Source of the DNA: Candidatus Saccharimonadales bacterium
GTDB lineage: Bacteria > Patescibacteriota > Saccharimonadia > Saccharimonadales > EFPC-124
NCBI GenBank assembly: GCA_035457485.1
Contig: DATIBO010000006.1
Location: 498,659 to 562,658 of the forward strand
Direction: 5' to 3'
DNA: 64,000 nucleotides
This document shows, one piece after another, positions 14,738-53,591 of this stretch. Made by a program: the position numbers and the translations under genes. Below the pieces are notes generated by a model. That model made no database searches. It was not told the DNA's origin and saw only the letters and a list, made by a program, of their open reading frames with translations. Every line of letters starts with the position of its first letter. The stretch's first letter is position 1.

Positions 14738-15232
14738 TTACCTTGGCCTGGTCAGTTCGTACAGAGCGATTCCAGTGGCGACGCTAACGTTAAATGATTC
14801 TTTCTTTCCTTGCATTGGTATTTCGGTGATCATATCGCACATCTTTATAAGGTCGTCGGAAATACCATTAACTTCTTCGCCTAGCAGTAGAGCGGTTTTT
14901 TGAGTAGGTCTGATATTGGGTAATAAGATCGAATCTTTGTTTTGCTCAAGTGCTAAAATTGTGAAACCATTGTCTCGCAAGTTTTTTATAAGGGTAAAAA
15001 TATCATCCGCAAACTCGCTCGGCATAGTTACTTCGGCGCCAAGCGCGGTTTTATGAATCTGACTTGTGATTTTTTGTCTGATGTGCGGCAGACGGGGATC
15101 ATCGCGTTGTTCGGGGTAGGGGGTGTATCCACTAAAATAGACTTTCCGCACACCAAAGCCGTCAGCAGTTCGCAGGATCGACCCTACGTTATAAGTGCTA
15201 CGAATATTATGCGCGATTAAAACAAGTTGCAT
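14738..15232 (-). CDS. SpoU/TrmH-family RNA 2'-O-methyltransferase
   Basis: NVGSILRTADGFG...LLLGEEVNGIS...IPMQGKKESFNVSVATGIALYE. The start is moved from 15349 to ATG 15232. Confidence 0.8.
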   Translation of the reverse strand: MQLVLIAHNIRSTYNVGSILRTADGFGVRKVYFSGYTPYPEQRDDPRLPHIRQKITSQIHKTALGAEVTMPSEFADDIFTLIKNLRDNGFTILALEQNKDSILLPNIRPTQKTALLLGEEVNGISDDLIKMCDMITEIPMQGKKESFNVSVATGIALYELTRPR

Positions 15233-15295
15233 ACTTATAAAATACTTCACGCGCGCCCATTCCCCAAATCGCAAAACATTTGTACAATAGTGCTT

Positions 15296-16912
15296 ATGGC
15301 AGCCGATGATCAGGCTAAATTTAGAGCTGAGGACGAATTTAATACTCAACGCAGGGCGGGCTTACTTGGCTTGCAGTATTACGATACCGTTGGGGTTGTT
15401 CAAAAAGCACAACTTTTTCCGTCCACGCTAACCGTCCAGGAAATGCACAAAGGACGGATTGTTCCACTTAGCGACGGTAACGACGAAGCTGCTCTAATTT
15501 TCGGCATCACAGTTTCTACTCCGCAGCAACTATTAAACGAGCTGCGTGATCGTTTTAATGGGCGAGTCGTTAGATTTTTAATGATCTCAGACTCTGGCTT
15601 TAAAGAGTTCATGCAACGGTATGATCCGCCAAAAAAAGTAGTTTACCAAGATGTAAAAATCGCCAAAGAAGGCGACAACGCGGCGATCGCCGAGGTTTCA
15701 AAAACTTTAGACTCTGTGCGTTCTGACGATATTTTAAATTATCTAATAACTCAGGCCGATAAACTTGGCGCATCCGACATTCATCTTGAAAATCAACAGG
15801 GGAACTTGAGAGTAAGACTTCGCGTTGATGGCGCACTGCATCCGGTAGCTACTCTTTCACGCGATAAATATCGAGTTTTATTGGCGTCAATTGCATCACG
15901 AGGCAATGTGAGTACTGCGGCAACTGATGCGCAAACTGGTCACATGCAACAAGAGATCCGTAATCCTGATGGATCAACCCGAACCTTAAACATGCGTATC
16001 GAAACCGTTCCAACGATCTATGGCCAAGACGTCGTCATGCGATTATTCAATTTTGATCCCCGGCTCCTTAAGTTAGATTATCTAGGATTAAATCAGCAGC
16101 AACTAAAAACCATCCAAGATGTTGTTGAGCATCCGCATGGAATGGTGATGGTTGTCGGGCCTACTGGTTCCGGTAAATCAACCACGCTTTACAGCATGAT
16201 TAACGGTTTAAATACTACTGATCGCAAGATTTTGACACTCGAAGACCCGGTCGAATTAGCTGTGCCGGGTGTGATTCAGATTCCGGTTTCTACCGAAAGC
16301 GGCGATAGTTTTGCCGACAAGCTGCGTGCTGTGTTGCGACTTGACCCCGATATAATTATGGTAGGCGAAATTCGAGATATAGATACGGCGAAGACCGCCA
16401 TTCAGGCCTCAATCACCGGACATTTGGTGTTGAGTACATTCCATGCGAGTACAGCGGCCACAGCTTTTAGCAGAATTATAGATATGATTGGGCAGAACCC
16501 AATCTTCTCGACGGCGATCCGTCTAGTTATTGGCCAACGTTTAGTCCGTAAATTAGATGAAAAAACACGTGTAGCCTATAAGCCCGACGAGGCAACTAAA
16601 AAATATATCAACGAAGTGCTGAGTGATTTGCCCAAGAATGTCGCAAAGCCAGATGTCGACAATTTGACCTTATATAAACCCGGATCTTCGGCTGAAAATC
16701 CATTTGGGTATCGTGGCCGATTGGTGATAATGGAGCAAATGGCAATCACCGATAAAGTGCAGGCGTATTTGCGCGGCGATGTCGCTGATGTGGATTCGGT
16801 AATGATTGAGAAAACTGCCAAAGCACAAGGTATGGTAACCATGTTGCAGGACGGTGTGTTGAAGGCTTGTGCCGGAGTCACTACGCTCGAAGAGATCAAC
16901 AGAGTAATTTAA
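15296..16912 (+). CDS. pilB: type IV pilus / type II secretion ATPase (PilB/GspE family)
   Basis: Walker A GPTGSGKST, Asp/His boxes and a GspE N-terminal domain. The start is moved from 15227 to ATG 15296. Confidence 0.85.
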   Translation: MAADDQAKFRAEDEFNTQRRAGLLGLQYYDTVGVVQKAQLFPSTLTVQEMHKGRIVPLSDGNDEAALIFGITVSTPQQLLNELRDRFNGRVVRFLMISDSGFKEFMQRYDPPKKVVYQDVKIAKEGDNAAIAEVSKTLDSVRSDDILNYLITQADKLGASDIHLENQQGNLRVRLRVDGALHPVATLSRDKYRVLLASIASRGNVSTAATDAQTGHMQQEIRNPDGSTRTLNMRIETVPTIYGQDVVMRLFNFDPRLLKLDYLGLNQQQLKTIQDVVEHPHGMVMVVGPTGSGKSTTLYSMINGLNTTDRKILTLEDPVELAVPGVIQIPVSTESGDSFADKLRAVLRLDPDIIMVGEIRDIDTAKTAIQASITGHLVLSTFHASTAATAFSRIIDMIGQNPIFSTAIRLVIGQRLVRKLDEKTRVAYKPDEATKKYINEVLSDLPKNVAKPDVDNLTLYKPGSSAENPFGYRGRLVIMEQMAITDKVQAYLRGDVADVDSVMIEKTAKAQGMVTMLQDGVLKACAGVTTLEEINRVI

Positions 16913-42784: not shown

Positions 42785-44071
42785 ATGAAGCACACAATTA
42801 ACAATACATCTGACACAACAAAACAAATCACAGTAAGCTTAACTGCCGACGATTTGGCTGAAGTTAAGGCTAAAACTGTAAAGCGTCTTGCCAAGGACGT
42901 AAAAGTTGCAGGTTTTAGGCAGGGCAAGACACCTGTTGGAGTTGCTGAAAAAAACATTAATCCCCAAGTTTTAGAGAGTGAAATTGTTGAAGACGCTGTC
43001 AACCAACATATGATTGCTATCTTGGACGCCGAGAGCATTATGCCGCTTGATCGTCCAAAAGTTGAGGTTAAAAAAATGGTTCCTGGTGAACAACTTGAGT
43101 TCGTGGCTGAGCTAGAGGTGATTCCAGAAATTAAGCTTGGTGACTACAAAAACCTAAAGGCCAAAAAAGATGACGTTAAAGTTACTGAAAAAGACGTAAC
43201 TGAAGTGATTGATCGCCTGCGTGGCGCAGCATCTGAAAAGAAAGATGTTGACCGTGCGGCTAAAGACGGCGACGAAATTGTTATGGATTTTGCCGGCACA
43301 GACAAAGACGGCAAAGAAGTCGAAGGAGCTAAGGGCACTGATTACCCTTTGACTTTGGGTTCTAAGACTTTTATTCCTGGTTTCGAGGAAGGCTTGATTG
43401 GCAAAAAGCTGGGCGATAAGTTTGATCTCGACTTAACCTTCCCTAAGGACTACCATCATAAACCTCTTGCAGGCGCAAAGGTTAAATTTGCCGTAACAAT
43501 CAAAGCTGTTAAAGAAGTAGTTCTGCCGGAATTGACAGATGAATTTGCTGCAAAAACTGGTGCTTTTAAAACTGTCGACGAGCTTAAAGCCGATATCAAA
43601 AAAGAATTAGAATCTCAAAAAGAACGTGAAGCAACCGATAAGCTAAAAGACTCTTTGCTTGAACAGCTTATTAAAGTCAGTACAATTCCAACTCCCGAGA
43701 TCTTAATCAAAGACCAAATGCAAATGTTGGAGCGGGACTTTACTCAAAACTTGATGTACCGTGGTCTAACTCTTGATCAGTATCTTGAGCAGCAAGGTTT
43801 AACCAAGGAAGATTGGGAGAAGAACGAGCTTCGCGAGCAATCCATTCGACGTGTGCAAGTTGGATTGGCTTTGGCCGAGCTTAGCAAAATCGCTAAGATC
43901 GAAGTTAATCAACAAGAGCTTGAAGCGCGCGTTGCCGAATTAATGCAAGGTTACGGAAACAATCCTGAAATTGCTAAACAGTTTGAAAGCCCTGAAGTTC
44001 GCCGAGATATTGCAAATAACGTTATGACTCGTAAAACAACCGACTACTTAGTTGAGGTTAACGCAAAGTAA
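42785..44071 (+). CDS. tig: trigger factor
   Basis: N-terminal ribosome-binding segment (GFRQGKTP), an FKBP PPIase domain and a C-terminal arm. Confidence 0.9.
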   Translation: MKHTINNTSDTTKQITVSLTADDLAEVKAKTVKRLAKDVKVAGFRQGKTPVGVAEKNINPQVLESEIVEDAVNQHMIAILDAESIMPLDRPKVEVKKMVPGEQLEFVAELEVIPEIKLGDYKNLKAKKDDVKVTEKDVTEVIDRLRGAASEKKDVDRAAKDGDEIVMDFAGTDKDGKEVEGAKGTDYPLTLGSKTFIPGFEEGLIGKKLGDKFDLDLTFPKDYHHKPLAGAKVKFAVTIKAVKEVVLPELTDEFAAKTGAFKTVDELKADIKKELESQKEREATDKLKDSLLEQLIKVSTIPTPEILIKDQMQMLERDFTQNLMYRGLTLDQYLEQQGLTKEDWEKNELREQSIRRVQVGLALAELSKIAKIEVNQQELEARVAELMQGYGNNPEIAKQFESPEVRRDIANNVMTRKTTDYLVEVNAK

Positions 44072-44346
44072 TGAGTGAGCGTGGTGGGTACGACCCGAAC
44101 GTGGCCGGCACCGTTCCTTGGTATTCTAAGGAGCAGCGTACAGCTAACTCTATTGATACGATGCCTCATCCAATGATGGTGGAAATCGCCGGCTATACGC
44201 AGGCGGCACGCGAATCTGGTGTTCAGCTTGATGAGAAGGACGTTGCGGAGGCGATTGCACAAGCAATTGCTAATAGTTACGGCGATGTCTGGCGTGGGCC
44301 TGCGTTTGAATTGGGCATGATTCTTCTGCGACAGAACGAACAGTAG
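44071..44346 (+). CDS. hypothetical 91-aa protein
   Basis: TAATG overlap with the tig stop and intermediate GC. No motif recognised. Confidence 0.4.
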   Translation: MSERGGYDPNVAGTVPWYSKEQRTANSIDTMPHPMMVEIAGYTQAARESGVQLDEKDVAEAIAQAIANSYGDVWRGPAFELGMILLRQNEQ

Positions 44347-44426: not shown

Positions 44427-47400
44427 ATGGAGGGGTCTGGGGTATTTATGCGTGAAGAAAAAATTAAACTAAGTAAGTTAAAATCTTATTTTTATAAAGC
44501 GTCGTTTTTTTGTATGGCGCTAATGTCGGTTTTATCGCTTGTGCCGACAGATGCGATAAAAGCAATCGCTCCTCCACATACAAACATCGAAGGTAGCGCT
44601 GAACCTATTGACGCCTCAAACATAGCCCCAATAAAAGAGACCGATAAAACTGAGGTCCCTGCGGCTGATTACGGTAAAGTTCCATTTGCCGACGGAATGG
44701 GTGCGCAAAACGCGCCCGAGCAAAATAAGAAAGATCGCAAAGAGCTGTTTGAGGACGAAACAAAACGTACAGCTTTTTCGAACGAATATGTAAATAGCGA
44801 CGGAACTCGCACGATAAAAAGCTCGCCGGTTGATGCAATTAACTACAAAGAGGGTGATACTTGGCGCAAAATCGAGCATGTTGTAAACGATGATGAGGCG
44901 TACGTCCCAAGTAAAAACCTTGATGATTCCTCTTTTTGGGATTTTTTGCCCTGGACAAATAAGTCTAAAGCCGTAGACGCACAGGCGGGTCGAACAAAAG
45001 CTAAGCTAAGGCCGTTTGCCGAAGGTATTAGTTACGAAATGGGCGGTAAAACTTTTACACTTGAGCCGGTTGATGCGCGCAATGTTAAACCTAGAATTTC
45101 TACTGTTGCCGACGGGCGTGTCACGCTTATAACCTATGTGGATGCCTGGCCGGGCGTGGATGTTCTATATGAGTTGCACGGTGAATCGGTGAAAGAGTCA
45201 ATAATTATTAAAAACGCAAATGCGCGTACAGATTATGAGTTTAAGGTATCAGGCGCGACGCTTTTCGAGCATCCAACTATAAAAGGCGCTTTGGCGATTG
45301 AGGGGCTAGATCCAGAATTTTACATGATCTCTCCGCTTAGTGTGAATGTAAACAAGCAAGGTTTAACTACCGAGCAAGTTGCGGCGCAAACAACAGATGG
45401 TTCAAAAATTAAGGTTACCCTTGACCAAAAGTGGTTTTCAAGTCAGCCACAACAAAGTTTTCCAATAGTTATAGACCCCACTGTTTCTGTTAACTCTGCC
45501 GAGTATGGCTTTTATTCCTATAAATCCGATGGCTATTCTTGCACGGATGTACAATGCGGTGGTCCGAATGTTGGAGCGCTGTATGACAGTAGTTGGAAGA
45601 ATTGGCGCAGCCTAGTTAGGTTGCCATTTGAGCAGCTACGCGGAAAGCAATTGTTGTTTGCCGAGCTTGGAATGGACATGGCCCAGAGACCATATTGGAC
45701 AGGCACAACCGACGCCAAGACCATTTATACAACTTACGCTCAGTGTATCGGCTACCAATGCGCAAGTAACATTTGGCACAGTAGCGCGAGCATGGCTACA
45801 GGTGTTTGGATGAACATTACAAACACTATTCAAGGGATGATCGATGCTAATCAATGGGGTGGTTGGTTGATATTGTGGGGCGAAGAAGGCAACTCGACTT
45901 CTTACAAACAGCTAGAATATAGCACAATGGAGATTCGGCTCACCTATACAACCCCAGCACCTATAGCTCGGCCGGTTGAACCTTCAAATCAACAGGTAGT
46001 TGTAACAACCCAGCCAAACTTAAAAGTTGGCACAGTAGCCGATGCCGAGGGTGAGCAAGTTGAGTATAACTTTAAGCTTGCAACTGGGGCTGACGCTGAA
46101 TCTGGCACGGTTGCTGCTTCGGGTTGGTCGCCGTCTAATTTATGGACGGTTCCCGACGGTGTTTTACAAGATGGCGTGACGTATTATTGGCATACTTACA
46201 CTAAAGATGGGAACGTACAGACAAATCCGGATTGGGTTAGCTCGTTTAAAGTGGATATGAGAACCGGCAAAGACAGCACACAGGCTTACGATACGGTTGG
46301 TCCACTTAGTGTAGATATCGCTACCGGTAATTTAACTACTTCTAACGCTAGTCATTCTGTAAGTGCTTTAGGGGGATCGCTTGGCGTAGGAATGTCATAC
46401 AACTCGCCAATGCAATCTCGCCAAGGTTTGTACGGCGAATATTGGAACAACACAAACTTTAGTGGCAACCCTGTTTTGGGGCGTGTTGACCCTGAGGTTG
46501 ATTTTAAATGGGGTAACGGTTCGCCGGCTACAGGCGCGGTTAATGCAGATAACTTTGCTGTTCGTTGGACTGGCTATTTTGTAGCGCCAAGCACGGGTGA
46601 CTTTTACATTGGGGCAGATGTCGATGATTCTTATAACATTTATTTAAATAACCAACTTCATCATAGCCGCAGTGGCGCCGGTAGCGAATTTGGCGCAACG
46701 CCAGTTAGCTTAACAGAAGGCCAGATCATACCGATTAAGGTAGAAATGGTCGAAAATTACGGCTTAGCGGTTATGAGTTTGCGAATGAAAAAGGCCGGCG
46801 GTGAACCGCAAATTATTCCTAGCTCAATGTTGCAGACCGGCGTTAGACAAGTGGGTGCGCCGCATGGCTTGATTGGGCGTTACTACTATGATTCTGGTAA
46901 CCATAACTTTCCAACTAATCCAAACGAAGCGTTTTTGGTTCGAAACGACAGTTTAATATCTTTTAACTGGGGTTCTGGTTCTCCAGTTCCTAGCGGTCCA
47001 GCCAACGATTTCTTAGTTAGATGGACGGGTTATGTGACAGTTCCGGAAACAGGTGTATACCAATTTGGTTCAAGGGCTGACGATGGTGTTAGGATAAAAC
47101 TTGGAATTGGGTCGGGAGGATCCGATCAGACAGTTCATGATAAGTGGATTGACTCGAGTGCAGTTGATAGTTGGGGTGGCGATGTTAGCTTGACTGCCGG
47201 ACAGGTAATTCCGATAACAGTCGAGTATTACGAATACGGCGGCGATGCTGTTATGGAGCTAAAAGTTCGTCGCGCTGCAGGTGTAGGTGAACAAACTTTG
47301 CCATCAACATGGTTAATTCCTAGTACTATGGCTTTGCCAGCCGGCTGGAGCTTAAGCGTAGATCCTGATGGCGGTTTAAGCTACGACCGAATGAAATTGG

Positions 47401-50400
47401 TTGGCAACAACGTGGTTTTGTACGACTCAACAGGTAGCACTCATGAATACACGTGGACGGGCAGTGGCTACAAACCGCCACTTAACGAAGACGGGTACTT
47501 AGTTCGCAATCAAGACGGCACTTACACAATGCAAGATGTAGATGGCCGAACTTACGTGTTTAACGCAGACGGAACTTTAAAAGAAACAGTCACGCCAACA
47601 GATGACCGCAAACCTGCGGCCCTTAAGTACGAATACACCGGAACGCCTTCGCGTTTAACAAAAATCATCGATGGAGTGACGAACGATAGGTTTACCAGCC
47701 TACATTACAGCGGCGATAGTGAGTGTAGTGGCGCACCGAGCGGATTCGACGCGCAAGCTCCTGCGGGCATGCTTTGTGCTGTAAAAACCAGCGACAATGC
47801 GGTTACAAAAATCTGGTATAAACAAAATAGGTTGGCCAGAATCGTACGCCCGGGCGGCGAGACGACTGACTACGGTTACGACACATTTGGCCGAATTGTA
47901 TCTGTCCGTGACCCGCTAGCAAGTGATGCTTTGGCGGCCGGCGTCCGAAGTGACAACGACGAGCTTTTAACTCAGGTAGCTTACGATTCAATTGGTCGCG
48001 TTAGTGCGCTTACTCAGCCAGCGGCCACAGCCGGAGCGAACCGATTGCAAAAAACTTACGATTACGGCTCTTCGGCAAACGCAATTTGGTATGACCCAAC
48101 AATTGTTACTGGCGAGACTCCAGCTGGCAATCCGGCATTAGTCAATTTTGGGCCAGGTAAGCTGGCAATGTTTGCGCGCTTTGGCGCCGACGAACTTAAG
48201 TATCGTTTTTACGAAAACGGTGCCTGGGGTGATTGGCTTTCGCTCGGAACGTGTATGCGTAGCGATCCTGCGGCAGCAAGTTGGACAGCAAACAGAATAG
48301 ATGTGTTTATTAGGGGTTGTGACGACCAGCTCTACACTCGCGTTTACATCGATGGCACCTGGAACGGCTTTGTAGCCTTGGGTAGTAACCAAATATCCTC
48401 GTCGCCATCTGCTACAACTTGGGGCAATGCACGTATTGATGTTGTGGCACGCGCGACCGACAACCGACTAATGCACCGAAACCTTTCAGCTACCGGCTGG
48501 TCAAACTTTAGCTACCTCGATGGCTGTTTGTCGGATGCGCCAAGCGTTTCTACCTGGGGCTACGATCGCCTGAATGTTTTTGCTAATGGCTGCGACAATC
48601 CGTCTACGGTCTATACCCGCAATTACTCTGCTGGCTGGCAAAACTTTCAGCAGACAACCGACCAAAAAATAACTTCGGCACCACAATCTGTTAGCGCTTT
48701 AGATAAAAAAATTCATATGGCAGCTAAAGGCCCGGCCAACGAGCTACGGTACTTAAACGGTTATGAATACAACGCAAACGATCTCAAGTGGTCGTGGCAA
48801 ACGCTGCAGCCATGTATGCAAGGATCGCCTGCAATAACAATGGACGGCACAACGGTAGCTATAGTTTATAAAGGCTGTGACGGCAAAATGTACCAAACGC
48901 GCCGCGCCCAACAGGGAACAACCAAAGTACACGTAACCGGTGATTCTGAACCAAACGGCTACAACACTAAGGTTCAATACGACAACCTGTTTAGAACAAT
49001 CAAAAACTACGACAAAACTGGCAATGTAACCGTTAGTGAATGGGACTCAGTTAAAGATTTACTACTAAGCACTACTGGCGCAACTGGCCAAAAATCTACC
49101 ACAATTTACGACGTCGATGACCGCGCAACCGATAGCTACGGCGCAGCTCCCAAAGAATGGTTTGGTAGCGATCGCAAACCACTAGCGGCAAACGTAAACC
49201 AGGTGCCACATGTAGAAACAAAATTCGACGAAGGTATTTGGGGCCCGCAAGTCACCTGGTACAACTTTAAGCAAGGTAATCCAAGCACAACCGGTAGTTT
49301 TGTCGGCGCACCAAAACTGCATACAACAGGTTTTGGTGACGCAGCCGGTAGCCACGTTTGGGCAAAAAACATGGCAACTGCACCGATCACCGCAGACGCA
49401 GGTATGGATGGAATTGGCTTTTCGGCCACAGGTAAGCTACGCGTTACACAAACCGGCACGTACACAATTACCAGCAATCACGACGACGCCGCTCGCGTTT
49501 GGGTAGATGACAAATTAGTTTTCGACCGTTGGAGTAGGCGAACCGAAACTCAAGATCAAGTTTCGGGCCAAGTGTCCCTGCAAGCTGGCAAAGTTTACCG
49601 TTTACGCTACGACTACGCTAACATTGGCGCAGCTGGTTACATGGACTTGCAGCTAAACGGCCCAGGCCGCAGTGCCCCATTAAACCACTGGACCAACTAC
49701 TTAGCACCAGGCTACAACCTAGCCACAACCAACAAAGTTTACGACGCAACATTAGGCGATATCGAGACTAAAACCAACTACGGCAGCGAACCACAATATG
49801 GTTTAGTACAAAGCGCAACGCTAGACCCAACCGGATTAAACTACTCTAGCGGTAGCACATTCGAAGCCCCAGGCACCGGCTTTTTGCGTCAAACCAGCAA
49901 AACCCTGCCAGGCGGAGGCACAACCACCTACACCTACAACAGCGCAACCGAAACCGCCGACAACCCTTGCACCGGCCCAACCGAAGCCATACATCAAGCT
50001 GGGTTTATAAAACAAAAAATCGAAGCCGATCCAGATGGCGCCGGCACCCAAACCGCACGAACGCAAAGCACAGTTTATGATGCGGCTGGGCGAGCGGTGG
50101 CAGTCCGGTTTAACAACGATCCGTGGACATGTACTACTTTCGATACCCGCGGCAGAGTAACCCAAGCCACTATTCCAACGATAAACGGACGTGCTGGTAG
50201 AACCACCACAACAACCTATAGCTACACGGGCAATCCATTTAAAACACAAACCGTTGATTCTGTCGCCGGCACCACTGAATCCGAAATTGACCTTCTTGGC
50301 CGAGCTGTTTCTAGCATCGACGTATTTGGTAACGTTTCTACCTTGGCTTACGACAACCTTGGCCGAGTAACCACTAAAACCTCACCAATAGGAACCGAAG

Positions 50401-52199
50401 GCTTTAGCTACGATACTTACGGTCGCCCTACTGAATATCTTCTCAATAGTGTTAAATATGCGACGACAACCTACGACCAGTACTCCCGAGTTCAAGACAT
50501 AACCTACGACCAAGCCAAAGACGCCTCCAATAACAAACTAAAACTAGAACAGCTCAAACGCGACTCCCTCGACCGCAACACCGGTGCGGTCTTCAGATTC
50601 AGCAACGGCCTTGCCTTCGACGAATCTGTAACTCGTTCACAATCTGGCCTAGTAACGTCGTATTCTGACACCTTCGACGCCAAAACCGCTGGTGCAGCCT
50701 ACACCTACGACAAAGCCGGCCGCCTACTCGAAGCCACAGTAGATACAACAAAATACACCTACGGTTACGCGGCCCCAAGTTCTAGCGTTTGCAACCAAGC
50801 TAGTGCTAACCTAAACGCCAACAAAAATAGCAACCGCACCACCTACACCGTAACCAACACTCAGACCAGCCAAGTAGTTCAATCCCAATCCTACTGCTAC
50901 GACCAATCCGACCGCCTAATCTCCACCTCCGACTCACAAATTGGCACCCCAACCTACGACGACCACGGCAACACTGTCTCCCTCGCCGGCAACAGCAATC
51001 CAATTACCTTCACGTACGACGCTAGCGACCAAAACACTGCCATCGGGCAAGGCCAGAACAAGGTAGAATACCTAAAAACTGCTGTCGGCTCAGTTCTCCG
51101 CAAAAAAGAATACGAAAATAATGTTCTTGTACGTTCCTACCGCAACCTCTCCGGTGGTTCCGTAATGCAGAGCTGTTCCCTAACCAACGACTCCGACTGC
51201 CAAACCACCGACACATACCTAAGTCTCCCCGGCGGCCTAACCCTAACCCTCTCACCAACCAACCCAGACACAAACAAACAAATCGTATATAGCATAAAGA
51301 ACTTCCACGGAGACAGTGCAATCACTGCTAGTTCAACTGGACTTCCAACATCTTCCGTCTTCCTCTACGAACCCTTCGGCCAAGCTACTTCTTCTACAAC
51401 ATTCAGTACTAACTCCAATCCTCAAAACAGCTCTAACCAAACACTAGGTTGGGCTGCAAGCCCAACCAGAAAACAAGAATCCTTGTTCTCTATACCAATA
51501 GTACAAATGGGAGCTAGAGTATACCTACCTACACTAGGACGCTTCCTCCAAGTAGACCCAATCGAAGGAGGAACAGCCAATTCGTATGTGTATGCGGGGG
51601 ATCCGGTGAATGCGGATGACTATAGTGGGATGGCGATACCGCAGAAGGGTAATGCTAAGTGGTTAAATAATTATCCCCACTATCCTCTTGTCTACCAGCA
51701 ACCTATTATCTATCCGTTAATTAACGTCAGACCAAAACCTGCCATGCCGCAAGATGCCGGTGGACTAGTCGCTGGCGCAATATCCTTGTCTGGCGATGTT
51801 TCTAGCGGATTTAAACGCCAATCTTCCGTATATGGCCAACAATTACAACGGGGCTCGAGTATAGCAGGTCGGAATTTACGGTCCGTTAGTCAGCTGGCTA
51901 AAAACCCCGCTATTCGTGCGGTTGGAAAATACGCAGGACCGATAGGGGCTAGTGTAGAGTTTGCCGGAAACTACTTCGCTGGTGACAGTCTAGGGCGCAA
52001 TGTATTAAAGACTGGCGGGGGAGTGGCCTTAGGGGGAGCGGGTGTATTCGTTGGAGGTGTGGCTTGCGGGACTGTATCCTTAGGTACTGGCGGAATTGCT
52101 GCGGTTACATGCCCTGTTCTGGTGGGTGGATTAGGGGCTGCTGGTTCAGTGGCTGGAAATAAGTTTGGAGAGGGTCTTGCTGATGTGTTTGGATGGTAA
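44427..52199 (+). CDS. giant secreted RHS/YD-repeat polymorphic toxin (2590 aa) with three PA14 domains and a lectin-like beta-propeller
   Basis: N-terminal signal/anchor (FFCMALMSVLSLVP). There are more than 12 YD repeats (YGYDTFGRIV, AYDNLGRVT, TYDKAGRLLE and others). The core end is RVYLPTLGRFLQVDPIEGGTANSYVYAGDPVNADDYSGM, followed by a variable C-terminal tip. ATG 44448 is an alternative start. Confidence 0.9.
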   Translation: MEGSGVFMREEKIKLSKLKSYFYKASFFCMALMSVLSLVPTDAIKAIAPPHTNIEGSAEPIDASNIAPIKETDKTEVPAADYGKVPFADGMGAQNAPEQNKKDRKELFEDETKRTAFSNEYVNSDGTRTIKSSPVDAINYKEGDTWRKIEHVVNDDEAYVPSKNLDDSSFWDFLPWTNKSKAVDAQAGRTKAKLRPFAEGISYEMGGKTFTLEPVDARNVKPRISTVADGRVTLITYVDAWPGVDVLYELHGESVKESIIIKNANARTDYEFKVSGATLFEHPTIKGALAIEGLDPEFYMISPLSVNVNKQGLTTEQVAAQTTDGSKIKVTLDQKWFSSQPQQSFPIVIDPTVSVNSAEYGFYSYKSDGYSCTDVQCGGPNVGALYDSSWKNWRSLVRLPFEQLRGKQLLFAELGMDMAQRPYWTGTTDAKTIYTTYAQCIGYQCASNIWHSSASMATGVWMNITNTIQGMIDANQWGGWLILWGEEGNSTSYKQLEYSTMEIRLTYTTPAPIARPVEPSNQQVVVTTQPNLKVGTVADAEGEQVEYNFKLATGADAESGTVAASGWSPSNLWTVPDGVLQDGVTYYWHTYTKDGNVQTNPDWVSSFKVDMRTGKDSTQAYDTVGPLSVDIATGNLTTSNASHSVSALGGSLGVGMSYNSPMQSRQGLYGEYWNNTNFSGNPVLGRVDPEVDFKWGNGSPATGAVNADNFAVRWTGYFVAPSTGDFYIGADVDDSYNIYLNNQLHHSRSGAGSEFGATPVSLTEGQIIPIKVEMVENYGLAVMSLRMKKAGGEPQIIPSSMLQTGVRQVGAPHGLIGRYYYDSGNHNFPTNPNEAFLVRNDSLISFNWGSGSPVPSGPANDFLVRWTGYVTVPETGVYQFGSRADDGVRIKLGIGSGGSDQTVHDKWIDSSAVDSWGGDVSLTAGQVIPITVEYYEYGGDAVMELKVRRAAGVGEQTLPSTWLIPSTMALPAGWSLSVDPDGGLSYDRMKLVGNNVVLYDSTGSTHEYTWTGSGYKPPLNEDGYLVRNQDGTYTMQDVDGRTYVFNADGTLKETVTPTDDRKPAALKYEYTGTPSRLTKIIDGVTNDRFTSLHYSGDSECSGAPSGFDAQAPAGMLCAVKTSDNAVTKIWYKQNRLARIVRPGGETTDYGYDTFGRIVSVRDPLASDALAAGVRSDNDELLTQVAYDSIGRVSALTQPAATAGANRLQKTYDYGSSANAIWYDPTIVTGETPAGNPALVNFGPGKLAMFARFGADELKYRFYENGAWGDWLSLGTCMRSDPAAASWTANRIDVFIRGCDDQLYTRVYIDGTWNGFVALGSNQISSSPSATTWGNARIDVVARATDNRLMHRNLSATGWSNFSYLDGCLSDAPSVSTWGYDRLNVFANGCDNPSTVYTRNYSAGWQNFQQTTDQKITSAPQSVSALDKKIHMAAKGPANELRYLNGYEYNANDLKWSWQTLQPCMQGSPAITMDGTTVAIVYKGCDGKMYQTRRAQQGTTKVHVTGDSEPNGYNTKVQYDNLFRTIKNYDKTGNVTVSEWDSVKDLLLSTTGATGQKSTTIYDVDDRATDSYGAAPKEWFGSDRKPLAANVNQVPHVETKFDEGIWGPQVTWYNFKQGNPSTTGSFVGAPKLHTTGFGDAAGSHVWAKNMATAPITADAGMDGIGFSATGKLRVTQTGTYTITSNHDDAARVWVDDKLVFDRWSRRTETQDQVSGQVSLQAGKVYRLRYDYANIGAAGYMDLQLNGPGRSAPLNHWTNYLAPGYNLATTNKVYDATLGDIETKTNYGSEPQYGLVQSATLDPTGLNYSSGSTFEAPGTGFLRQTSKTLPGGGTTTYTYNSATETADNPCTGPTEAIHQAGFIKQKIEADPDGAGTQTARTQSTVYDAAGRAVAVRFNNDPWTCTTFDTRGRVTQATIPTINGRAGRTTTTTYSYTGNPFKTQTVDSVAGTTESEIDLLGRAVSSIDVFGNVSTLAYDNLGRVTTKTSPIGTEGFSYDTYGRPTEYLLNSVKYATTTYDQYSRVQDITYDQAKDASNNKLKLEQLKRDSLDRNTGAVFRFSNGLAFDESVTRSQSGLVTSYSDTFDAKTAGAAYTYDKAGRLLEATVDTTKYTYGYAAPSSSVCNQASANLNANKNSNRTTYTVTNTQTSQVVQSQSYCYDQSDRLISTSDSQIGTPTYDDHGNTVSLAGNSNPITFTYDASDQNTAIGQGQNKVEYLKTAVGSVLRKKEYENNVLVRSYRNLSGGSVMQSCSLTNDSDCQTTDTYLSLPGGLTLTLSPTNPDTNKQIVYSIKNFHGDSAITASSTGLPTSSVFLYEPFGQATSSTTFSTNSNPQNSSNQTLGWAASPTRKQESLFSIPIVQMGARVYLPTLGRFLQVDPIEGGTANSYVYAGDPVNADDYSGMAIPQKGNAKWLNNYPHYPLVYQQPIIYPLINVRPKPAMPQDAGGLVAGAISLSGDVSSGFKRQSSVYGQQLQRGSSIAGRNLRSVSQLAKNPAIRAVGKYAGPIGASVEFAGNYFAGDSLGRNVLKTGGGVALGGAGVFVGGVACGTVSLGTGGIAAVTCPVLVGGLGAAGSVAGNKFGEGLADVFGW
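46425..46838 (+). other. PA14-like domain 1 within the RHS protein
   Basis: GLYGEYWNNTNFSGNPV...DFKWGNGSP...FAVRWTGYFVAPSTGDFYIGADVDDSYNIYLNN. Confidence 0.7.
46862..47320 (+). other. PA14-like domain 2 within the RHS protein
   Basis: GLIGRYYYDSGNHNF...SFNWGSGSP...FLVRWTGYVTVPETGVYQFGSRADDGVRIKLG. Confidence 0.7.
48132..48915 (+). other. about six ~48-aa repeats resembling tectonin/PLL/fucose-lectin beta-propeller blades, embedded in the YD region
   Basis: Repeating pattern P(A/S)xxxW..(N/D)R(I/L)(D/N)VF(A/I)(R/N)G.D..L..R......W..(F/W)..LG. Confidence 0.55.
49241..49670 (+). other. PA14-like domain 3 within the RHS protein
   Basis: VTWYNFKQGNP...GFSATGKLRVTQTGTYTITSNHDDAARVWVDDKLVFDRW...GKVYRLRYDY. 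Confidence 0.6.
51339..51384 (+). repeat. 46-nt direct repeat, copy 1 (inside the RHS core 3' region)
   Basis: GGACTTCCAACATCTTCCGTCTTCCTCTACGAACCCTTCGGCCAAG is identical to 53169-53214. Confidence 0.9.
51633..52199 (+). other. RHS C-terminal variable tip: glycine-zipper, predicted membrane-inserting toxin domain
   Basis: It begins after DDYSGM. The tail GGGVALGGAGVFVGGVACGTVSLGTGGIAAVTCPVLVGGLGAAGSVAG has repeated GxxxG spacing. Confidence 0.45.
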
Positions 52200-52205
52200 C
52201 CTTAA

Positions 52206-52589
52206 ATGTTACAATATATTGGTATGAATATAGAAAGCACCCTATACCCATTGGCTTTACTCGTCTTATCATTTTTTTCGATATGGGCCTTGTTAAGTAT
52301 GAAATCTCTCTATACTGATCCAAAGCGACTTCCAATAACACCTCCGGCATGGTGGCCATACAGTAAAAAGGGATGGCGAAACTGGGCTAGGGCGGCACCT
52401 ACTTTTGTGGCGTATGCGGTTCCAGGTATAATCGGAGGAACAATTGCCGAGTATGGGGACCTCTCCAACCCAATAGTTCGAGTGCTATTTTTATTGTGCG
52501 GATTTTTGATGTTTTTCGGGCTTATAATTGGCCTTATTGTTGCTTTCATCGGTCGTCCGAAATGGCTCATACCTAAACATTTGAGGTAA
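52206..52589 (+). CDS. polytopic membrane protein, candidate RHS immunity protein
   Basis: 127 aa with 3-4 TM segments, starting 7 nt after the RHS stop. An alternative leaderless start is ATG 52224, 8 nt after TGTTACAAT (52207-52215). Confidence 0.45.
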   Translation: MLQYIGMNIESTLYPLALLVLSFFSIWALLSMKSLYTDPKRLPITPPAWWPYSKKGWRNWARAAPTFVAYAVPGIIGGTIAEYGDLSNPIVRVLFLLCGFLMFFGLIIGLIVAFIGRPKWLIPKHLR

Positions 52590-52688: not shown

Positions 52689-52961
52689 TTGGTCATGGTA
52701 AAAAATAAGAAAGCTCTAACAATAACTTTAATAACAATTGCAGCACTTAGTCTAACCGCTTACATTGCTGTAAAAATCTTAGAATACGAGAACCAAAAGA
52801 ATACCTATGCTCAGGAAGCTATGGAATATGGAGCTAAAGTACTTGTTGATGAATGCTTGAAAGAAGGCAAATCTAACGAAGCATGCCAAAACCTAGAAAT
52901 AAGTCGGAGCGAAACTGAATGCATGGGACAGACATGTTGGATAGTTTATGGCATTGAATAG
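52689..52961 (+). CDS. small TM-anchored Cys-containing protein
   Basis: 90 aa with an N-terminal TM helix and 4 Cys in the ectodomain. The start is ambiguous (TTG 52689 or ATG 52695). Confidence 0.35.
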   Translation: MVMVKNKKALTITLITIAALSLTAYIAVKILEYENQKNTYAQEAMEYGAKVLVDECLKEGKSNEACQNLEISRSETECMGQTCWIVYGIE

Positions 52962-53303: not shown

Positions 53304-53591
53304 ATGAAGAGCCCGTGGATTGCTGGAATTTTAAACTTTATTCTCCCTGGAGTGGGCTATCTGTATCTTGGAATAAGAAAGCCATTTGCAATACTTTTAT
53401 TGGCAGGCGGGGCAGTAGTCTTCTTGTCGGGCCTCGACCCCGTTATAGGTGAATGCCTTACAGCTCTCAGTTTTACCCCGCTTTATGTCTTAGGTGGTAT
53501 TTTGATGGCAAGCGCATTTGCTGTGGATGCTGTCCTTGAGACCAAGAGACTTAACTCGCTTAAATCGAAAAACGATTCAAAAGAAAAATAA
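53304..53591 (+). CDS. small membrane protein (candidate orphan immunity)
   Basis: 95 aa with 3 TM segments and SD AAAGGA. It lies directly after the orphan RHS fragment. Confidence 0.45.
   Translation: MKSPWIAGILNFILPGVGYLYLGIRKPFAILLLAGGAVVFLSGLDPVIGECLTALSFTPLYVLGGILMASAFAVDAVLETKRLNSLKSKNDSKEK

Follow-up and report, generated by a model that had tools for sequence, protein, structure and literature searches.

A putative WapA-like RHS toxin of a Saccharibacterium with a predicted PLL-family propeller as an optional cassette at a fixed shell site

WapA-type RHS toxins, described in Bacillus subtilis and in Streptococcus suis (PMC12704120), are made by producers without an outer membrane and combine a Sec signal, a giant cocoon of YD repeats, a core with a cleavage motif and a polymorphic C-terminal toxin domain, next to which lies an immunity gene. 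WapA is Sec-dependent and needs its wall-binding region (PMC12704120). How toxins of this type, exported by Sec from bacteria without an outer membrane, recognise and enter their targets is poorly understood. Here, we describe a gene of Candidatus Saccharimonadales that encodes a 2590-aa RHS protein and lies on the forward strand of a 64,000-nt stretch of genomic DNA, hereafter the window (contig DATIBO010000006.1). Among functional classes, these Sec-dependent toxins of Gram-positive producers come closest, and the window protein shares with them the type of producer, the signal, the cocoon, the core motif and the polymorphic C-terminus, with a candidate for the immunity gene next to it; it lacks, however, the LysM/CWB2 wall-binding repeats, and its cocoon has PA14 domains and a PLL-type propeller spliced in, as relatives have B-lectin, CBM4/9 and DUF1349 modules.

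Embedding a propeller in a YD shell is not new as such, because in the TcB/YenB-TcC ABC toxins and in teneurins a six-bladed propeller in or beside the N-terminal part of the shell is standard, being of the NHL type and constitutive, and in teneurins it is exposed and mediates recognition (PMC5851990). These proteins also have the YD shell and RHS core in common with the window protein, whose propeller, in contrast, belongs to the PLL/DUF346 family and is optional among its relatives, and which differs from TcB in being a single-chain, Sec-secreted bacterial toxin without a TcA partner. The preliminary description of this DNA had held the intercalation of modules within the YD region to be atypical, which was an overstatement, given these precedents and a PA14-RHS family of at least 60 members. 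What is unusual is to find a propeller of a lectin family that behaves, as do the PA14, B-lectin, CBM and DUF1349 modules, like a swappable insert at fixed shell sites.

The relatives of the propeller itself are the Photorhabdus lectins PLL, PLL2-5 and PHL (PMC5584973, PMC6943638), which are homologous to it, have the same W-motif blade and give the best structural match. They are, however, free lectins of ~370 aa with seven blades, whereas the window propeller has six, carries Cys pairs within its blades, has Tyr or Met in place of the Trp of the fucose site and lacks the Trp of the polar site. Among the lectin-like bacteriocins (putidacin L1/LlpA, pyocin L1), lectin modules of the MMBL/B-lectin type serve as targeting domains that select the cell to be attacked, and relatives of the window protein share such modules; the bacteriocins are small, soluble, two-domain proteins without an RHS shell, and the window protein has PA14 and PLL modules, not B-lectin. 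In 2018, Starr et al. devoted one sentence to a secreted toxin of 2487 aa, of RHS/YD/PA14/galactose-binding make-up and accompanied by an immunity gene, from a Saccharibacterium of the rhizosphere (PMC6031116). This sentence was the sole relevant item found in the literature on Saccharibacteria and RHS, in which neither cassette behaviour nor a PLL insert was found described.

We read the window gene, with a probability of roughly 0.7, as encoding a WapA-like, Sec-exported polymorphic RHS/YD toxin that carries carbohydrate-binding-type modules at fixed shell sites, would reach its target through glycans, and would be equipped with a depolarising tip and a matching immunity protein. Sequence comparison and structure prediction supply the evidence for the domain identities, the six blades of the propeller, the presence or absence of cassettes, the variability among tips and a linkage, conserved elsewhere, between the toxin gene and the candidate immunity gene (Table 1).

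The cassette arrangement emerges from the comparison of homologues. A search of 5.8 billion proteins yielded 65 relatives, mostly from Saccharibacteria, with actinobacterial members in Allorhizocola, Saccharothrix, Lentzea, Microbacterium and Antricoccus. YD block 1 is colinear with all homologues as far as aa 1213, and occupancy of the propeller site (site 1) could be mapped by BLAST in 60 members. In 46 of them the alignment ends at aa 1213 and restarts at aa 1497-1499 with 3-15 residues between; seven carry a propeller of 282-294 aa, which is thus absent in 53 of the 60, and another seven (P0015, P0018, P0022, P0024, P0043, P0045 and P0058) carry at this place a different, Cys-rich module of ~130 aa. 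The latter has repeated LYSC...CEGQ...GY motifs, found no match in searches of Pfam and of the PDB sequences, and may be a new binding domain. Judged from these alignments, the insertion site is fixed, and the propeller is a cassette that a member may carry there or lack.

Other points of the shell behave in the same manner. Site 2 (aa 1611/1624) lies within YD block 2 at aa ~1611-1624 and is empty in the window protein, while four to five homologues hold there a ~113-aa B-lectin module with three QxDGNxVxY motifs. The carriers of this mannose-type B-lectin (MMBL) module are P0025, P0044, P0046, P0048 and P0019, and among PDB sequences it matches plant mannose lectins, putidacin L1 and pyocins L1/L2 (E~1e-21 to 1e-18). 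Two late-shell sites, near aa 2030 and aa 2280, are filled in P0010 (aa ~2031-2211), P0067, P0034/P0042 and P0069, the inserts including CBM_4_9 in P0067 (E=9e-12) and P0010 (E=8e-5), tandem DUF1349 in P0034 (E=3e-13) and a segment of ~210 aa in P0069. Of the PA14 domains, the second is missing in 13 of 62 homologues, leaving a single N-terminal copy, and the third is present family-wide in a region that is colinear in the homologues. Modules that vary at the same shell points suggest that it is they that choose the target cell. Far more tentatively, the fixed loop sites of the cocoon might dock interchangeable glycan-recognition cassettes (PA14, PLL propeller, B-lectin, CBM4/9, DUF1349) that set the target range of the toxin, an extension that we regard as possible but doubtful. 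If true, it would amount to a swapping of receptor-binding domains such as CdiA and the lectin-like bacteriocins show, which had not been recognised before among RHS/WapA toxins, and epibionts could by this means permeabilise the membrane of their host or fight rivals on its surface.

In a rough neighbour-joining tree that has no support values, the members with a propeller do not form a single clade but are scattered, which would fit gain and loss of the module, and the Allorhizocola protein stands beside Saccharibacteria-type proteins, apart from those of Saccharothrix and Lentzea. This protein (WP_162907085.1), encoded at 6380-14005 of contig NZ_QJUG01000012.1 (locus L004) of Allorhizocola rhizosphaerae, a cultured actinobacterium, is full-length, carries the propeller and is 43% identical across 92% of the protein. 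The local guanine plus cytosine (GC) content at its locus is ~61-62%, which we take to be low for the genus, and the gene may reflect transfer between epibiont and host lineages. PLL-type propellers as such are widespread, an exhaustive HMMER search finding them in ~7000 protein clusters, with giant RHS proteins accounting for 2 of the top 150. Among GTDB species representatives, a profile from a tighter alignment found the RHS-embedded propeller only in Allorhizocola, and a scan of genome contigs with a single protein as query gave no matches.

The identity of the propeller was established along several lines. In a phmmer search of PDB sequences with aa 1215-1518, the Photorhabdus lectins PLL2, PLL5, PHL and PLL were retrieved at E=2.5e-44 to 1e-21, the PLL2 match (E=2.5e-44) having per-stretch E-values of ~1e-13. 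Local Pfam models gave a sub-threshold match to DUF346 (E=0.013) and no NHL propeller in the RHS protein, and PF26607 (Beta-prop_PLL) is among the precomputed annotations of the identical public protein and of its relatives. The AlphaFold2 (AF2) model has a predicted local distance difference test (pLDDT) score of 83.6 and a predicted template modelling score (pTM) of 0.83, and a Foldseek search with it placed lectins of the PLL family at the top (E~2e-15), followed by the six-bladed fucose lectins of fungi, the template modelling (TM) score of ~0.67 to the seven-bladed PLLs being equal to that to the six-bladed fungal lectins. Repeat register and DSSP assignment of the model agree on six blades, not the seven of PLL; the last strand of blade six is probably supplied by the N-terminal AIWYDP, which would close the ring. 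The preliminary description had already recognised about six blades of ~48 aa with a likeness to PLL and fucose lectins, and these results, well outside what chance would give, bear it out. The propeller has three Cys pairs, located in blades 2, 4 and 6, which relatives with an RHS-embedded propeller have kept and which fit an extracellular, disulfide-stabilised domain.

Sugar contacts are described for PHL at T194, W199 and W214 and at R186, E188, W202 and W163 (PMC5584973), and were placed on the window propeller through a HMMER alignment. The counterpart of T194 is C, T or A; the Trp that makes the CH-pi contact (W199) is replaced by Tyr in five of six blades and by Met in the remaining one; the second Trp of WSxW (W214) is Phe in three blades and remains Trp in two. 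R-x-E has become R-x-D/N, in three blades only, the equivalent of the polar-site Trp (W202) is lost, and that of W163 is retained in five blades. The lectin ancestry of the propeller is therefore firm, homology to PLL being clear, while lectin activity, with the contact residues only partly kept, is far less certain; glycan targeting by the propeller and its fellow modules is plausible.

At the C-terminus, the comparison of relatives that the preliminary description had proposed shows that the tip is variable. With the exception of P0010, homologues cease to align at aa ~2401, and 55 C-terminal tips fall into 29 clusters. The tip of the window protein is common to only five other sequences, with the Gly positions and two Cys invariant; P0010 is the one full-length relative that has it, the two tips being 56-58% identical. 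Gly makes up 30% of the final 70 aa, and a hydrophobic stretch extends over ~50 aa. Pfam assigned no family to this tip, and nine other tip clusters likewise returned nothing significant. By analogy with glycine-zipper toxins, the tip is most likely a membrane-active toxin. Tse5-CT is a glycine-zipper toxin that depolarises membranes. The C-terminus of EsxX (PMC12744356) and the ionophoric toxins of contact-dependent growth inhibition (PMC11630599) likewise pair a Gly-rich hydrophobic C-terminal domain with a small membrane immunity protein, although the likeness of the window tip to them is one of composition, no sequence homology having been looked for or found, and its two invariant Cys and its N-terminal half of ~120 aa set it apart.

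Just 7 nt past the toxin stop codon begins a candidate immunity gene, whose product is 52% identical (E=3e-47) to the one encoded directly 3' of the same tip on L002, an unrelated contig from a metagenome. In every propeller-bearing relative examined, a small open reading frame (ORF) abuts or overlaps the stop codon, in neighbourhoods that are all different. Taken together, the sequences of the tip and of the downstream membrane protein suggest a membrane-depolarising toxin with its immunity protein.

The remainder of the protein is that of an RHS toxin, as the preliminary description had it. Over the whole protein, Pfam PA14 (PF07691) matched three stretches at E=1.3e-53 (181 bits, the gathering score being 24), in places that agree with the N-terminal pair and third domain described before, and the third domain by itself reaches 62 bits. 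RHS_repeat PF05593 (E=2.3e-13) and TIGR01643 (E=1.6e-10) mark the shell, the identical public protein HSE29550.1 carries a precomputed match to PF25023 (TEN_YD-shell), and TIGR03696 of NCBIfam matches the core above its cut-off. The core terminates, as had been stated, in GRFLQVDPIEGGTANSYVYAGDPVNADDYSGM, the last residues being DPVNADDYSGM, and the motif GRFxxVDPxEGGxxNxYxYxxDPxNxxD(L/Y)xG is conserved in 55 homologues, both Asp positions included. Shell repeats, core motif and variable C-termini are thus all present, and the earlier assignment to the RHS polymorphic toxins stands. Upstream of the PA14 pair, we infer from sequence that a short segment forms the first strands of the cocoon, whose canonical 'GW' continuation resumes only past the pair, at aa ~988.

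Export appears to follow the Sec route. The N-terminus has a positively charged stretch followed by a hydrophobic segment of 15-20 aa within aa 23-44, and homologues share this charged/hydrophobic layout, with AxA-like sites after it; the assignment, which upholds the signal or anchor of the preliminary description, was made heuristically from hydrophobicity and the conserved n-h-c layout. No PAAR, VgrG, LXG or WXG domain was matched by Pfam in the RHS protein, and an effector of a type VI or type VII secretion system was ruled out by the lack of targeting domains and the Sec-type N-terminus. The long N-terminal region, modelled by AF2 with a 33-sequence alignment, gave weak Foldseek matches to tandem FN3/Ig-like and CBM-like folds (TM-score ~0.15) and a weak Pfam match to DUF7948.

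If these parts are put together, the protein would first be exported by Sec and then stay on the cell surface or leave it, surface display being an assumption because a recognised cell-wall anchor was not found. Its cocoon would present the modules in fixed loop sites, with the PA14 pair past the first strands, followed by the propeller and the third PA14 domain. We infer that the lectin-type modules would then bind envelope glycans of a target cell, which could be the actinobacterial host or a rival bacterium. Cleavage after DYSGM by the conserved aspartyl autoprotease motif would release the 188-aa glycine-zipper domain, and this may insert in the target membrane and depolarise it, while the small polytopic membrane protein encoded downstream would shield the producer.

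Several observations weigh against the reading of the window gene as a glycan-targeted, depolarising toxin. The tip matches no Pfam family, so that its glycine-zipper reading draws on amino-acid composition and on the kind of gene that lies beside it; similarity between the small membrane protein downstream of P0010 and the window candidate is not detectable; the sugar-contact set of PHL/PLL is retained only in part in the propeller; and Pfam and NCBIfam gave no match to LysM, CWB2 or LPXTG wall anchors in the RHS protein. This last result, together with the need of WapA-type toxins for a wall-binding region (PMC12704120), would also suit lectin-type modules that fix the toxin to wall glycopolymers of the producer itself, as the LysM/CWB domains of WapA do, instead of recognising a target. 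Such a housekeeping anchor would be expected to be near-universal, and the three PA14 domains are (two in 13 members). We nevertheless consider it unlikely, since the occurrence of the propeller, B-lectin, CBM4/9 and DUF1349 modules is patchy, with swaps among close relatives, a distribution that diversifying target recognition fits better. B-lectin modules are, moreover, generally known as the targeting domains of lectin-like bacteriocins, and the N-terminal beta-sandwich region of 500 aa could provide the anchor instead.

Even less probable, in our view, is a propeller that serves the cocoon structurally, as its gate or plug, after the fashion of the TcB/YenB propeller or the teneurin NHL domain, which would make its lectin ancestry irrelevant. 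The six blades and the position within the YD region, past an upstream YD block, do recall YenB (PMC5851990), and sugar-contact residues that are conserved only in part would agree with such a role. The shell sequence, however, runs continuously across the site in the 46 of 60 members without a module there, so the propeller is not needed for shell closure; seven members have the unrelated ~130-aa module in its stead, and its homologues are PLL lectins and not propellers of the NHL or FG-GAP kind. As an essential plug the propeller is ruled out, most members being without it. The protein could also be chiefly an adhesin for attachment of the epibiont to its host, similar to teneurins, with a vestigial toxin function; an epibiotic way of life, the numerous lectin-type modules and the long beta-sandwich N-terminal region are all in keeping with this. 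The autoprotease motif, however, is conserved across the family, the tips are highly polymorphic and a small gene is tightly coupled 3' at every locus examined, which are hallmarks of active toxin-immunity systems and therefore argue against a vestigial toxin, and homologues occur in free-living Actinobacteria as well, so that we give the adhesin little credence. The WapA-like toxin with carbohydrate-binding-type modules remains our preferred reading.

Table 1. Features of the RHS protein and of the gene downstream, with residues of the protein, positions in the window and the basis of each assignment.
Feature	Residues (aa)	Position in window	Strand	Basis or remark
Sec-type signal peptide region	1-47	44427..44567	+	charged n-region, hydrophobic segment aa 23-44
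All-beta multi-domain N-terminal region	102-615	44730..46271	+	AF2 pLDDT mostly >85; preceded by disordered linker aa 48-101
Putative first RHS cocoon strands (DUF6531-like, ...VDIATGNLTTS...MSYNSP)		46272..46415	+	DUF6531 weak, aa 629-674, E=0.045
PA14 domain 1	664-804	46416..46838	+	Pfam PA14, best stretch aa 664-777
PA14 domain 2	812-965	46860..47321	+	second PA14 stretch; GLEYA aa 862-947
YD-repeat block 1	985-1213	47379..48065	+	RHS_repeat/TIGR01643 aa 1130-1164
Six-bladed PLL-family (PF26607/DUF346-type) beta-propeller	1214-1497	48066..48917	+	phmmer, AF2, Foldseek; cassette at insertion site 1
YD-repeat block 2	1498-1625	48918..49301	+	homologue alignments resume at aa 1497-1499
PA14 domain 3	~1626-1750	49302..49676	+	PA14 E=5.9e-17 and GLEYA E=3.1e-10 on aa 1590-1760
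Main YD/RHS shell	1751-2313	49677..51365	+	RHS_repeat, 5 stretches, E=6.2e-10
RHS-associated core with putative aspartyl autoprotease motif	2314-2402	51366..51632	+	TIGR03696 E=1e-11
Polymorphic C-terminal toxin domain, 188 aa	2403-2590	51633..52199	+	Gly-zipper, two-Cys, hydrophobic; alignments stop at aa ~2401
Candidate immunity protein, small polytopic membrane protein	127 (121 from Met at 52224)	52206..52589	+	TM-like (transmembrane-like) segments

The gene (44427-52199, + strand) is a single uninterrupted frame of 2590 codons without a frameshift, and the public protein HSE29550.1, labelled "PA14 domain-containing protein" of Candidatus Saccharimonadales, is 100% identical, so that the 2590-aa product of the preliminary description holds; the frame and its colinearity with homologues rule out a pseudogene or an assembly artefact. 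HSE29550.1 is annotated from Met8 (44448) as a protein of 2583 aa, and 44448 may be the true start because a GGAGG lies upstream of it at 44429-44433. The reduced-genome organism that had been proposed is likewise consistent with a Saccharibacterium in which the identical protein is encoded on an 889-kb contig. Ordinary housekeeping genes surround the RHS gene, with an arginase-family protein, HisRS and trigger factor upstream and HSP20, phosphoribosyltransferases, ClpP and RpoB downstream, which places it on the chromosome of an organism with a reduced genome. Its GC content is 48.4% against 46.0% in the flanks, and composition was uninformative as to recent horizontal acquisition, the genes of relatives likewise matching their own flanks. 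Between 48001 and 52000, in the second half of the gene, the GC skew is negative (-0.07 to -0.21) and the AT skew reaches +0.18, the remainder of the window being positive; this change probably stems from the Thr/Ser/Asn/Tyr/Asp-rich YD composition and is not read as foreign origin because the gene and its flanks have the GC contents just given.

Directly upstream of the RHS gene, and overlapping the stop codon of trigger factor, lies an ORF of 91 aa (44071-44346) without a hydrophobic segment and without a Pfam match. Between the immunity candidate and HSP20 are two further ORFs that Pfam did not match, one of 90 aa (52689-52961) with an N-terminal transmembrane segment and Cys residues, and one of 95 aa (53304-53591) with two to three transmembrane-like segments. 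Weak similarity (E=0.002) links the 90-aa product to that of the gene upstream of the same toxin tip on contig L003, and both ORFs could be orphan immunity or accessory genes. No sortase or SecF-like gene was found associated with the RHS gene in the window, nor was a sortase seen near it. At the locus of one propeller-bearing relative (L068, 14447-15245), a small Gram_pos_anchor protein and a sortase are encoded ~3 kb 3' of the RHS gene, a neighbourhood that recalls the SrtB-WapA linkage reported for Streptococcus suis. Elsewhere in the window, 15227-16912 encodes a T2SSE/PilB-type ATPase (Pfam T2SSE, E=4e-88), which fits a machinery for type IV pili; such pili matter to the epibiotic way of life of Saccharibacteria.

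Modules that come and go at fixed sites of a shell amount to natural "domain-swap" experiments on receptor recognition, and the family described here is abundant in Saccharibacteria, whose molecular dealings with their actinobacterial hosts are poorly understood. Its occurrence in both Saccharibacteria and Actinobacteria, the phylum of the hosts, hints at gene exchange between the lineages of parasite and host. Should the modules bind particular glycans of the wall, they could become probes of the surfaces of actinobacterial cells or of those of the candidate phyla radiation. In this sense, the family makes it possible to test how target surfaces are recognised by WapA-like RHS toxins and possibly by epibiotic Saccharibacteria.

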